DNA of 32,000 bases from Halorhodospira halophila SL1 (GTDB taxonomy: Bacteria > Pseudomonadota > Gammaproteobacteria > Nitrococcales > Halorhodospiraceae): assembly GCF_000015585.1 (NCBI RefSeq), contig NC_008789.1:30001-62000 (forward strand). The letters are read 5' to 3'. The notes beneath the pieces are model-generated. The model was not told the origin of the DNA. It did no database searches and saw only the letters and a program-made list of their open reading frames with translations. Shown one piece after another: positions 24,365 through 27,076 of the stretch (positions are counted from its first letter, which is position 1; every line of letters begins with the position of its first letter). The position numbers were made by a program, and so were the translations under genes.

Positions 24365-27076
24365 CTACTTACCCTCCCGAGCGCCGGGCTCGGCCCGGCC
24401 GAGCTGGCGGACCCGATCCTGCAGTGCCGAGGCGATGCGGAGTTCGCGGGTTTCGCCCTCCCCCTCGGCGTCCAGGGTCTCTGCAGTCACCGGCGCGCCG
24501 ATCCGAATCGTGATGCGACCCGGCCGCGGAAACCGCTTGCCGATGGGCATGGCCTGATCCGTCCCCTCGATGGAGACCGGAATCGCCGGTACCGGTTGCG
24601 CCTGCAGCAGGAGCCCGACCCCGGGCTGGAACGGCTGCAGCGTGCCGTCCGGTGAGCGCCGTCCCTCGGGGAACCACACCAGCCCGTAACCATCCTGCAG
24701 CGCTTTGGCCCCAAGGGCGAGACTACCCCGCGGGCCGGTATGCGGGTCGATGGGGAGCACCAGACACGCCCGGCTGATCACGCGCACCCACCGGTTGGAG
24801 AACAGCAGGCCGGTCCAGCCACCCCAGCGTACGCGGGTGATCCGCGCGTAAGGCATGACCGAACCCAATGCCGGCGGATCCAGGGCGCTCAGGTGGTTGG
24901 GTACCAGCAGCACGGGCTCGCGATCGGGCAGGTGCTCCCGGCCTTCGACGTGTACCCGGGCGTACATCCGGAACAACACCTGGTCGATCCCGAAACAGAT
25001 CGCGCCGAGCCACCGCTCAAACCGGGTTCGCGGGGCCATCCAGCGCTGCTGTTGGTCGCTGAGCATGGCCTCGGGGTCGCGGAGCTGCTCGACCAGCCCC
25101 CGCCCCCGAGCGCCGTCGGGCTTAAACTGTGCGGCCTCGGCGGCCTCCCGGAGCAGATCGCGGACGGTCTCGATCCGGCCGAGGGCCTCCTCCTCCAGGG
25201 CCACGCCGACGCTCGAGCGCAGCTCCAGGGTCAGGTCGACCCAACCCAACGAGTCGAGCCCAAGATCGAGGCGCAGATTGGTGTCCGGAGTCAGGCGCAC
25301 CCGCGGGTAGCGATGCACCAGGCCGTCCCAAACCCGACGGGCGGTGGGGATCTGCAGCAACTGCTGATCCTCGACCGCCATCCGCTCCTCGGGGATCGGT
25401 CCCGTCTCGGCTGTTGCAGCCCCGTCCCCGAGGGCTTCGAAGAGCTCGCGCAGCTTGTGCCGACGCAGCTTGCCCAAACGGGTCCGGGGCAGCGGGTCGG
25501 AGCTGATCCGATAGATACTGATCTGGTGATGGCTCGGCAGCACGCCGGCCGCCTCGTGCAGCGCCTGGTTCAGGCGCTGCCGCACCTGCTCGTCGTCGAG
25601 GTCTCGTATCGCCTGGGGATCCGCGAAGAGCACCGCAGCAAGCCGGCCGTCGTGCTCCAGCACACCGGCATCACGGATGGCCTCCGCCCCGATCAGCGCA
25701 CTTTCCACCCGCTCCGGGTCGATATTCTCGCCCCCGCCGAGGACGATCATCTCGGAGGCACGGCCCTCCAGGTGCAGATACCCGTCCTCATCGAACCAGC
25801 CCAGATCGCCGGTGCGGTAGAACCCGTCCTCGGTAAACACCTCGGCGCTTTTCTCCGGCAGCTGCCAATAGCCCTGGAAGACGTTGTCTCCACGGGCCAG
25901 GACTTCGCCGGTGCGCGCCCCCGGCTCGACCGAATCGATGCGCAAATCCACGCCGGGCAATGGCAGGCCGGCCGCCTCCAGGCGCAGGCGATCCGGCGGG
26001 TTGTAGGTCAGGATCGGCGAGGTCTCCGTGAGGCCGTAGCCGGTGGCCACCTCCCAGCCCAGGTCCCGCAGTCGCTCACCGATGGCCGGACTCAGCGGCG
26101 CGCCACCTGCGACCACCATGCGTACCGAAGGCGCCATGCGCTGATGCAGCCCGCGGAACAACCGCCGACCCAGAGGCCAGCCCAGGCGATGGCGGGCGCC
26201 CCGGGAGATCCACAGCATGCCCTCGAAGAGCCGTTCGGCCCGAGCACCGCGCTCGGCGATGCGGCCACGGATCGCCGCATCCAGCGCTTCGTAGAGCCGA
26301 GGCACGCCAAGGATGATGGTGGCATCCCCCTCGCGTAGGGCGCGCACGATCTGCGGCCCGAGTACCGAATACGGCAGGACGATACTCGCCCCCAGGGCCA
26401 GCGGGGTAATGAGCCCCAGCGTGAACGGGTAGACGTGGTGGTAGGGCAGCGGGACGAAGATCCGGTCGTCCCGGTGCGCTAACTCCTGGCCGAGCAAGGC
26501 GTTGAGATTGGCGGTGATGTTGCCGTGGGTCAGCGGTACCCCTTTGGGCATGCCGGTGGTGCCCGAGGTGTAGAACAGCGTGGCCTGATCGTCCGGGGTG
26601 ACCTCCGGCTGCGCAGCATCGGTCGGCTCACGCAACCAGTCGCGCCAACTCTGCCCGGTTCCCGCCGGTTCATCGAGACGGACCGTCTCCAGCGGATGGT
26701 CGAGCTCCAGCCCTTCGAGCCGGCGCGCCGCCTCGCCGGCGGTGAAGACGCGGTGGGCGCCACTGTCCCCCAGGGCGTGGATCAGCTCCGCGCGTGGCAT
26801 CTGAGTATCCAGGGGGGTAACGACCGCGCCGGCATCGAGGATGGCCAGGCAGGCGATCACCCACTCGGCACTGTTCGGGGCGAACAGGACCACCCGCTCG
26901 CCGCGGCTGACACCGGACTCCATCAGACCAGCGCTCAGTTGCCGCGCGAGCCCGGCGACCTCCTGGTAATCCCAGCAGTCGAGGTCATCCCGATCCAGTG
27001 CCCGAACGGCGTCGCGCCCCGCCCCCTCATCCAGCCGGCGCACCAGCGTCTGAAGCGTCTGCAGTTCTTCGCTCAC
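24365..27076 (-). CDS. Tri-domain fusion: adenylate-forming fatty-acid ligase + phosphopantetheine carrier domain + PlsC-type (lysophospholipid/1-acylglycerol-3-phosphate) acyltransferase
   Basis: The track ORF 24365..28738 is trimmed to GTG complement 27074-27076, preceded by AGGAGGGAG. The alternative start is ATG 27139. The product is 903 aa. Adenylation motifs are LFYTSGTTGMPKG, TGYGLTE, YRTGDLG, GRASEMIVLGGGENI and PRTRLGKLRR. The carrier motif is LGLDSLGWVDL, with the Ser codon at 25250-25252. Acyltransferase motifs are VPNHLSALD (HX4D, 24878-24895), FPEGRRS and VPAIPVSIEG. Confidence 0.85.
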   Translation of the reverse strand: MSEELQTLQTLVRRLDEGAGRDAVRALDRDDLDCWDYQEVAGLARQLSAGLMESGVSRGERVVLFAPNSAEWVIACLAILDAGAVVTPLDTQMPRAELIHALGDSGAHRVFTAGEAARRLEGLELDHPLETVRLDEPAGTGQSWRDWLREPTDAAQPEVTPDDQATLFYTSGTTGMPKGVPLTHGNITANLNALLGQELAHRDDRIFVPLPYHHVYPFTLGLITPLALGASIVLPYSVLGPQIVRALREGDATIILGVPRLYEALDAAIRGRIAERGARAERLFEGMLWISRGARHRLGWPLGRRLFRGLHQRMAPSVRMVVAGGAPLSPAIGERLRDLGWEVATGYGLTETSPILTYNPPDRLRLEAAGLPLPGVDLRIDSVEPGARTGEVLARGDNVFQGYWQLPEKSAEVFTEDGFYRTGDLGWFDEDGYLHLEGRASEMIVLGGGENIDPERVESALIGAEAIRDAGVLEHDGRLAAVLFADPQAIRDLDDEQVRQRLNQALHEAAGVLPSHHQISIYRISSDPLPRTRLGKLRRHKLRELFEALGDGAATAETGPIPEERMAVEDQQLLQIPTARRVWDGLVHRYPRVRLTPDTNLRLDLGLDSLGWVDLTLELRSSVGVALEEEALGRIETVRDLLREAAEAAQFKPDGARGRGLVEQLRDPEAMLSDQQQRWMAPRTRFERWLGAICFGIDQVLFRMYARVHVEGREHLPDREPVLLVPNHLSALDPPALGSVMPYARITRVRWGGWTGLLFSNRWVRVISRACLVLPIDPHTGPRGSLALGAKALQDGYGLVWFPEGRRSPDGTLQPFQPGVGLLLQAQPVPAIPVSIEGTDQAMPIGKRFPRPGRITIRIGAPVTAETLDAEGEGETRELRIASALQDRVRQLGRAEPGAREGK

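Follow-up and report, generated by a model that had tools for sequence, protein, structure and literature searches.

The protein considered here has two close counterparts among studied enzymes. Aas of Escherichia coli (b2836) joins a PlsC-superfamily acyltransferase (residues 15-137) and an adenylate-forming fatty-acid ligase (AMP-binding, 233-568) in one polypeptide, uses free acyl carrier protein (ACP) and works with the flippase LplT. ElbD of Myxococcus xanthus (MXAN_1528), encoded in the elbA-E operon, carries a FAR1-like domain at its N-terminus, after which come ACS, ACP and AGPAT-like units, and its ACS and ACP activities have been confirmed in vitro (PMC9131029). A further group, comprising the stand-alone acyl-ACP synthetases AasS and cyanobacterial Aas and the FAAL-ACP loading units of polyketide synthases (PKS) and nonribosomal peptide synthetases (NRPS), adenylates a fatty acid and then passes it to a phosphopantetheine arm rather than to coenzyme A (CoA). 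We analysed a 32,000-nucleotide stretch of the Halorhodospira halophila SL1 chromosome (NC_008789.1, positions 30,001 to 62,000; hereafter the window), in which one minus-strand gene encodes a ligase, an acyl carrier domain and a PlsC-type acyltransferase as a single protein of 903 residues. As a whole, this protein is best explained, with moderate confidence and on the strength of its sequence, as a self-contained acylation enzyme that would recycle fatty acids and lysophospholipids.

Domain order, conserved residues and fold

A Pfam search judged by curated gathering cut-offs placed four domains above threshold in the order ligase, ligase C-terminal subdomain, carrier and PlsC-type acyltransferase (Table 1), with the PF00501 match reaching 264.6 bits against a cut-off of 29.9. 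A first-pass annotation made from the letters alone had read an adenylation domain, an LGxDSL carrier with Ser609 and the PlsC blocks in this frame and had proposed such a search; the Pfam matches and the motif positions bear out this reading, and the PP-binding match falls in the middle region. The ligase carries its A3 motif FYTSGTTGMPKG at residues 168-179, its A5 motif GYGLTET at 346-352 and its A10 lysine, K536, within PLPRTRLGK. Membership in the ANL superfamily was judged by a PF00501 score above the gathering cut-off, the A3 (TSGTTGxPKG), A5 (GYGxTE) and TGD motifs and the A10 lysine; all of these are present, and the Foldseek fold agrees. In the carrier, a hidden Markov model score above the gathering cut-off coincides with a conserved DSL serine, the two features by which we recognised carrier domains; the codon of this Ser609, within LGLDSLGW, lies at 25250-25252, and the domain gives weak matches to solved ACPs. 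The C-terminal unit contains the HX4D, FPEGxR and VPxxPV blocks by which PlsC/AGPAT acyltransferases are identified.

Conservation was assessed in an alignment of 97 homologs that are 47-87% identical to the Halorhodospira protein. Invariant positions include F168, T170-T173, G175 and P177-G179 in A3, G346-L349, E351 and T352 in A5, the TGD motif (T422-G423-D424) and Lys536 in the ligase, Asp608 and Ser609 in the carrier, and His728, Asp733, Phe802 and Glu804 in the acyltransferase. Because the catalytic residues of all three units are invariant, we infer that the three have been kept under selection together. At this level of divergence, such agreement in the motifs is far beyond chance.

An AlphaFold2 model built from the same 97 sequences, a step that the first-pass annotation had also suggested, is confident (mean predicted local distance difference test score, pLDDT, 91.3; predicted template modelling score 0.83). 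The carrier is built of four helices in the canonical way, Ser609 being the first residue of helix 609-623, and a long helix (685-704) precedes the acyltransferase. The linker from carrier to acyltransferase (~651-660) is of low confidence (pLDDT 59), and the one from ligase to carrier (~551-560) dips to 77; both fit a mobile carrier. The ligase also contains a 56-residue insertion, modelled as three helices (259-275, 278-298 and 303-314; pLDDT 93-97), which is missing from E. coli Aas, where the alignment has a 45-column gap. Matches in the Protein Data Bank (PDB) break into two stretches around residues 273-313, the solved ANL structures lacking the insertion. The top Foldseek match in the PDB is the Thermus long-chain fatty-acyl-CoA synthetase 1ULT (E 1.4e-39), followed by further ANL-fold enzymes. 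Among the matches listed, all cover the ligase domain, some the ligase and carrier, and none is a solved structure with the full architecture. By sequence, the nearest solved acyltransferase is PlsC of Thermotoga maritima (5KYM, E 2e-14).

Table 1. Positions of the fusion gene, its domains and motifs, and two other genes in the window
Feature	Position	Strand	Basis or remark
Complete coding sequence	24365..27076	-	903 aa plus stop at 24365-24367, GTG start at 27076
Shine-Dalgarno-like AGGAGG	27081..27086	-	4 nt upstream of the GTG start; read directly from sequence
Adenylate-forming N-terminal domain, residues 30-404	25865..26989	-	PF00501 AMP-binding, E 1.6e-78
Helical insertion in ligase domain, residues 259-314 (56 residues)	26135..26302	-	Alignments and AlphaFold2 model
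Ligase C-terminal subdomain, residues 443-548	25433..25750	-	PF23562 AMP-binding_C_3, 33.5 bits (cut-off 20.8)
Acyl carrier domain, residues 591-643	25148..25306	-	PF00550 PP-binding, 32.3 bits (cut-off 20.8)
PlsC-superfamily acyltransferase, residues 707-836	24569..24958	-	PF01553, E 7e-16, 58.6 bits (cut-off 23)
Acyltransferase HLSALD, residues 728-733	24878-24895	-	Read from sequence
Acyltransferase motif II VLPIDP	24743-24760	-	Read from sequence
Acyltransferase FPEGRR, residues 802-807	24656-24673	-	Read from sequence
Acyltransferase VPAIPV, residues 829-834	24575-24592	-	Read from sequence
acpS, holo-ACP synthase	2662..3042	-	PF01648, E 1.8e-20
DUF3683 fusion gene, 1288 aa	27167-31033	+	DUF3683, FAD_binding_4, FAD-oxidase_C, 4Fe-4S dicluster, CCG, DUF3400

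Reading frame and distribution of the fusion

The reverse complement of the interval translates without a break through 903 sense codons to a stop, which confirms the uninterrupted frame reported by the first-pass annotation and supplies the strand that had been left unstated; a plus-strand reading of the same interval was rejected, as it contains stops. The start is placed at the GTG at 27076, a choice supported by an 87% identical ortholog (P0002) that begins MSEELQT. The database copy from H. halophila (P0001) is 100% identical, has its start called four codons later (899 aa) and carries only the name "AMP-binding protein". The GC content at the three codon positions is 0.76/0.49/0.84, and a promoter and terminator scan around the gene gave nothing useful.

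Upstream of the GTG the frame stays open for another 554 codons (27077-28738, minus strand), which would yield a product of 1457 aa, about the size of ElbD. We considered this extension as a coding N-terminal reductase and rejected it, since it has no Pfam match and orthologs are about 900 aa long. Its codon-position GC of 0.85/0.46/0.68 is an antisense pattern, and it lies antisense to the genuine plus-strand DUF3683 gene, whose third-position GC is 0.87; the extension is not coding. An open frame that continues a real gene in this way could mislead gene callers.

Relatives of the fusion are widespread. In a scan of one genome per species, at least 593 species belonging to many different phyla had one, and the 80 best loci, which we examined further, match over nearly the full length at 40-73% identity. 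These 80 include loci from Ectothiorhodospiraceae, Halomonas/Vreelandella, Thioalkalivibrio and Halothiobacillus, from Nitrospira (N. moscoviensis among them), from Rubrobacter and other Actinomycetota, from Verrucomicrobiota, Planctomycetota and Desulfobacterota, and from Kiloniellaceae, Binatia and Methylomirabilota. Many host species, such as those of Halorhodospira, Thioalkalivibrio and Nitrospira, are probably autotrophs or phototrophs. The majority of the 120 leading database clusters share the four-domain architecture; in about a dozen, a precomputed PP-binding or AMP-binding_C_3 match is missing. More distant full-length copies lie on replicons of Rubrobacter radiotolerans (44% identity), Ilyobacter polytropus (32%) and Fusobacterium (26-28%). 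When the carrier-acyltransferase part alone was searched against 1.84 billion representatives, 317 clusters at 50% identity were recovered at E<=1e-30; among the best 150 of these, most entries are about 870-930 aa long and have the carrier-acyltransferase unit at the C-terminus, while the shorter ones are probably fragments. Orthologs measure 880-930 aa.

These data bear on the most sceptical explanation, namely that the fusion is an assembly or frameshift artefact, or that its carrier is vestigial and the ligase makes acyl-CoA for the acyltransferase. The second version draws on the placement of the ligase in a CoA-ligase-like subfamily and on the modest PP-binding score of 32 bits. The artefact version was rejected on the 100% identical database entry and the at least 593 species with relatives. 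As the full-length architecture recurs in all these species, a fusion created by sequencing error is excluded, and with it the frameshift or stop that the first-pass annotation, which had also proposed an architecture search, had named as a refuting outcome; the same uninterrupted frame occurs in hundreds of independent genomes, complete ones included. A vestigial carrier is difficult to reconcile with the invariance of Asp608, Ser609 and the surrounding carrier residues or with the confident four-helix fold. Taken together, the two versions appear highly improbable.

Predicted acyl relay and candidate acceptors

We propose that the protein is a self-contained acylation enzyme, soluble or peripheral to the membrane; a hydropathy scan found zero transmembrane segments, its top windows lying inside the ligase core. 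The ACSL-like adenylation domain, whose best NCBIfam matches are long-chain-fatty-acid--CoA ligases and whose best fold match is 1ULT, would first use ATP to activate a free fatty acid, probably a long-chain one, as acyl-AMP. The built-in carrier, by way of the phosphopantetheine arm attached to its Ser609, would then take over the acyl group in place of CoA or free ACP and swing on its flexible linkers to the C-terminal acyltransferase. There, the His728/Asp733 dyad would acylate a hydroxyl group of a lyso-lipid, for which a lyso-glycerophospholipid, the acceptor type of Aas, is the most likely candidate. Such an enzyme may serve lysophospholipid re-acylation and the recycling of free fatty acids, independently of CoA and free ACP. 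Domain identity, order and conservation, together with a confidently modelled fold, are established by the analysis, while we infer the reaction steps, the fatty-acid substrate and its chain length, the acceptor and the role from homology. We consider the relay from ligase to carrier to acyltransferase likely from its sequence features; a lysophospholipid acceptor with a recycling role is the leading but more tentative part of the proposal. The first-pass annotation had suggested both in-cis channelling and membrane-lipid recycling, and these ideas fit an acyltransferase closest to the Aas type, the acceptor and role remaining predictions.

AcpS is a plausible candidate that may prime Ser609. 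Its gene, which the first-pass annotation had placed correctly as judged by the PF01648 match, lies 21 kb from the fusion gene in a pdxJ-recO-era cluster; no other phosphopantetheinyl transferase is encoded in the window.

The nature of the acceptor was approached through the acyltransferase. Its similarity to the Aas acyltransferase (31% identity over 149 aa, 57 bits, E 2e-12) exceeds that to E. coli PlsC (25% identity, 37 bits), and by this measure Aas is the closest characterised relative found, nearer than PlsC. In agreement, NCBIfam models of the Aas type ("acyl-[ACP]--phospholipid O-acyltransferase") rank first for the C-terminal part (64.9 and 50.2 bits), ahead of the AGPAT model TIGR00530 (43.8 bits) and the lyso-ornithine-lipid model OlsA (20.9 bits), all of them far below their cut-offs. 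Motif II, with P775, D777 and P778 conserved in at least 90% of the 97 homologs, reads LPIDP in the fusion family, VPLDP in Aas and LIDR in PlsC. Motif III, by contrast, is the PlsC-like EGxRS (R807 at least 90% conserved, S808 nearly invariant), whereas Aas has EGRIT.

This mixture leaves room for a different product. Acting like PlsC or GPAT on lysophosphatidic acid (LPA) or glycerol 3-phosphate, the enzyme might convert exogenous fatty acid directly into phosphatidic acid, a reading that fits the PlsC-like FPEGxRS of motif III, the nearest solved structure and the match to TIGR00530. A bona fide LPA acyltransferase is marked by the motif II arginine (F/LxDR) and by a TIGR00530 score above the cut-off. 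Here the score stays below the cut-off of 102.95 as well as below the Aas-type models, and the arginine of PlsC LIDR is replaced by proline in the (near-)invariant PIDP, as in Aas. Since the domain also resembles E. coli PlsC less than it does the acyltransferase of Aas, we regard de novo phosphatidic acid synthesis as quite unlikely.

A second alternative keeps the relay and changes its end point, the acceptor being a lyso-aminolipid, glycolipid, diol lipid or other hydroxyl-bearing molecule and the product a specific membrane or signalling lipid rather than the outcome of bulk recycling. The acceptor cannot be read from the sequence, motifs II and III point in different directions, the family lies far below every curated equivalog cut-off, and ligase/lysophospholipid acyltransferase fusions have been described as recruited for unknown functions (PMC8460268). 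The OlsA match could be taken in the same sense, although it is much weaker than the Aas-type matches. Possible diversification of specificity is hinted at by Ilyobacter polytropus, whose plasmid pILYOP01 encodes tandem paralogs of 827 and 819 aa with the same four domains (L083:6947-9430 and 9655-12114), an arrangement that suggests duplication with diverged specificity. However, no biosynthetic cluster surrounds the gene in the 80 loci, where neighbours are housekeeping or variable, and the fusion is spread over many phyla whose lipidomes differ greatly, which speaks for a general substrate. A dedicated lipid is therefore unlikely, though less so than de novo phosphatidic acid synthesis.

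A transporter found near some relatives is relevant to the lysophospholipid acceptor that we prefer. In 9 of the 80 loci, which represent distant lineages, an Atg22/UMF1-type major facilitator superfamily (MFS) gene directly adjoins the fusion gene (survey loci L027, L066, L067, L070, L071, L072, L074, L077 and L080, from Kiloniellaceae and from metagenome-assembled genomes of Actinomycetota and delta-proteobacteria), and the two overlap by 4 nt in L070 and L077. A gene of the same type lies two genes downstream of the fusion on the Rubrobacter radiotolerans plasmid (L082:10275-11564). The arrangement is loosely similar to the lplT-aas pair of E. coli, which also overlaps. One could go further and imagine an autonomous machine that repairs lysophospholipids and recycles free fatty acids without CoA or free ACP in hundreds of species, with the Atg22-type transporter as a hitherto unrecognised lysolipid flippase in some lineages, as a third and independent solution beside Aas/LplT and AasS and with ElbD derived from it by gain of the reductase; we regard this extended scenario as doubtful.

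Several observations weigh against a self-contained recycling enzyme, in whole or in part. The ligase belongs to a CoA-ligase-like subfamily, so CoA use is possible. It scores below the cut-off for all 25 NCBIfam families listed (best NF004837, 278.8 bits against 476); as all NCBIfam matches are far below the family cut-offs, no equivalog assignment is possible. With motif II set against motif III, the acceptor signal from the sequence is mixed, even if it leans to Aas-like lysophospholipids. All-against-all clustering of open reading frames (ORFs) in the 80 loci and a Pfam census of 136 immediate neighbours revealed no partner family common across the loci and no conserved operon partner; the largest non-self ORF clusters are antisense ORFs of the fusion gene itself. 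The Atg22-type transporters have no BLAST similarity to E. coli LplT and adjoin the fusion in a minority of loci. Isolated ElbD showed no detectable acyltransferase activity (PMC9131029). Finally, in the literature searched, the clade without a reductase receives only passing mentions (PMC9131029, PMC8460268, PMC12820801) and is characterised neither biochemically nor genetically, which answers in part the first-pass annotation, where it was left undecided whether the architecture had been characterised.

If the relay is correct, many bacteria would be able to re-insert free fatty acids into membrane lipids while insulated from the CoA pool of beta-oxidation and the ACP pool of fatty acid synthesis (FAS). 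This would bear on the use of exogenous fatty acids to bypass FAS-II inhibitors, on free-fatty-acid secretion in engineered strains, and on outer-membrane and lysophospholipid homeostasis. With its compact and well-folding structure (pLDDT 91), the Halorhodospira protein also offers a model for carrier shuttling from a ligase to a lipid acyltransferase. It represents a widespread orphan lipid enzyme whose predicted chemistry can be derived from its domains and would come as no great surprise to specialists.

Gene neighbourhood and comparison with known systems

The window is ordinary chromosome, with acpS-pdxJ-recO-era-rnc-lepB-lepA, rpoE-rseAB, nadB, sdh genes, lysS and prfB. Within it the fusion gene is monocistronic; a DUF2452 gene on one side is convergent with it, the DUF3683-FAD oxidase gene on the other is transcribed divergently, and this synteny is kept in close Halorhodospira relatives only. 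Elsewhere the neighbours differ. Five Nitrospira loci (L029, L030, L037, L043 and L054) have a 575-aa HAD-phosphatase/HerA-like DUF87/DUF5752 fusion directly upstream; its HAD domain is reminiscent of ElbB, and the HAD-DUF87 fusion is restricted to Nitrospira. In Alkalilimnicola ehrlichii MLHE-1, the ortholog (L085:10661-13413) shares a 4-nt overlap with two GTPase genes that follow as a pair, the one of DUF697/MMR_HSR1 type and the other dynamin-like. This pairing is seen in the Alkalilimnicola lineage only, and the GTPases could be membrane-remodelling partners.

Three further features of the window deserve mention. The gene prfB (release factor 2; 21210-22290, minus strand) is split over two frames: its in-frame ORF at 21210-22085 starts at position 49 of the PCRF profile, and the canonical site for programmed +1 frameshifting, AGGGGGTATCTTTGAC, is found a short way upstream of that ORF, at 22233-22248. 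A predicted PolB-related 3'-5' exonuclease (1870-2643, minus strand; PF10108, E 6.6e-91) is encoded by the gene that directly follows acpS, where the pdxJ-recO-era-rnc-lepB-lepA cluster ends. At 22286-23752 (minus strand), a 488-aa ORF has no Pfam match and is overlapped by a plus-strand ORF of 443 aa (22409-23740) of the S-adenosylhomocysteine-hydrolase family, another case in this high-GC window of the longest ORF lying on the wrong strand.

ElbD, the only studied protein with an ACS-ACP-acyltransferase core in cis, suggests one more role for the fusion, in alkyl ether lipid formation together with a fatty-acyl reductase encoded elsewhere. The core has the same domain order as described for ElbD (PMC9131029, PMC13012113), a likeness taken from these descriptions and not from an alignment. 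ElbD-like homologues without the FAR domain have been noted among anaerobes, animal pathogens and extremophiles whose lipids have been little analysed (PMC9131029, citing Lorenzen 2014); because these taxa fit those found here, such homologues are very probably the family described in this study. Variants split into Re and A-ACP-AT parts also exist (bioRxiv 10.64898/2026.06.23.733905). Against such a role, neither the protein nor the open upstream extension contains a reductase domain, and NAD_binding_4/FAR is absent from the 25 commonest Pfam families of the 136 immediate neighbours. Genes like elbB (HAD), elbC and elbE (NAD-dependent epimerase) are absent next to the Halorhodospira gene, and elb-like families do not recur among the 136 neighbours except for the HAD-DUF87 protein of the five Nitrospira loci. 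No protein of ElbD length (~1470 aa) appears among the 120 top database clusters or the best 150 of the 317 carrier-acyltransferase representatives. Moreover, ether lipids are not known to have been reported from Halorhodospira, Halomonas or Thioalkalivibrio. Pontiella has elbD homologues yet makes no ether lipids (PMC11868695). An ElbD-like role thus seems very unlikely, and reductase-less members recovered as "elbD homologue" matches in metagenomes should not be counted as ether-lipid capacity.

Among other relatives, stand-alone PlsC/AGPAT enzymes (5KYM; E. coli PlsC) share the fold family, the HX4D dyad, FPEGxRS and the VPxxPV block but take acyl-ACP or acyl-CoA in trans and carry the motif II arginine (LIDR versus LPIDP). 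AasS, cyanobacterial Aas and the FAAL-ACP units differ in that their carrier is a protein of its own or belongs to a megasynthase, and the characterised cases have no fused acyltransferase. FAAL-like domains of unknown function, fused to or beside lysophospholipid acyltransferases, have been reported (PMC8460268, PMC12820801). The best curated models for the fusion acyltransferase are the MFS-acyltransferase-ligase triple fusions NF006386 and NF005291 (~1140 aa), which also match the ligase. They have another domain order, a fused MFS transporter and no carrier in the matched layout, and the scores of the Halorhodospira protein fall far short of their cut-offs (1221 and 1349 bits). They do show transporter, acyltransferase and ligase as a recurrent functional trio.

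The comparison with Aas and ElbD is the most informative. Relative to Aas, the order of acyltransferase and ligase is reversed, as the first-pass annotation had stated together with the use of free ACP: the Aas acyltransferase is N-terminal, and Aas has no PF00550 match, whereas the Halorhodospira protein carries this domain. The ligases are 26% identical (E 8e-30) and differ in their C-terminal domain (PF23562 here, PF13193 in Aas) as well as in the 56-residue insertion; the Aas equivalog NF005959 gives only 36.5 bits against a cut-off of 886, and lplT adjoins aas in E. coli, whereas no MFS gene stands next to the Halorhodospira gene. ElbD differs by its extra FAR-like reductase. The first-pass annotation had placed this reductase between ACP and AGPAT, which is incorrect, since it is N-terminal (PMC9131029); the Halorhodospira protein, for its part, starts 29 residues before its AMP-binding domain. 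Judged by domain order, carrier domain and model scores, the Halorhodospira protein is not a member of Aas, and with neither a reductase nor an elb operon it is not a member of ElbD, yet in its working parts it is like both.

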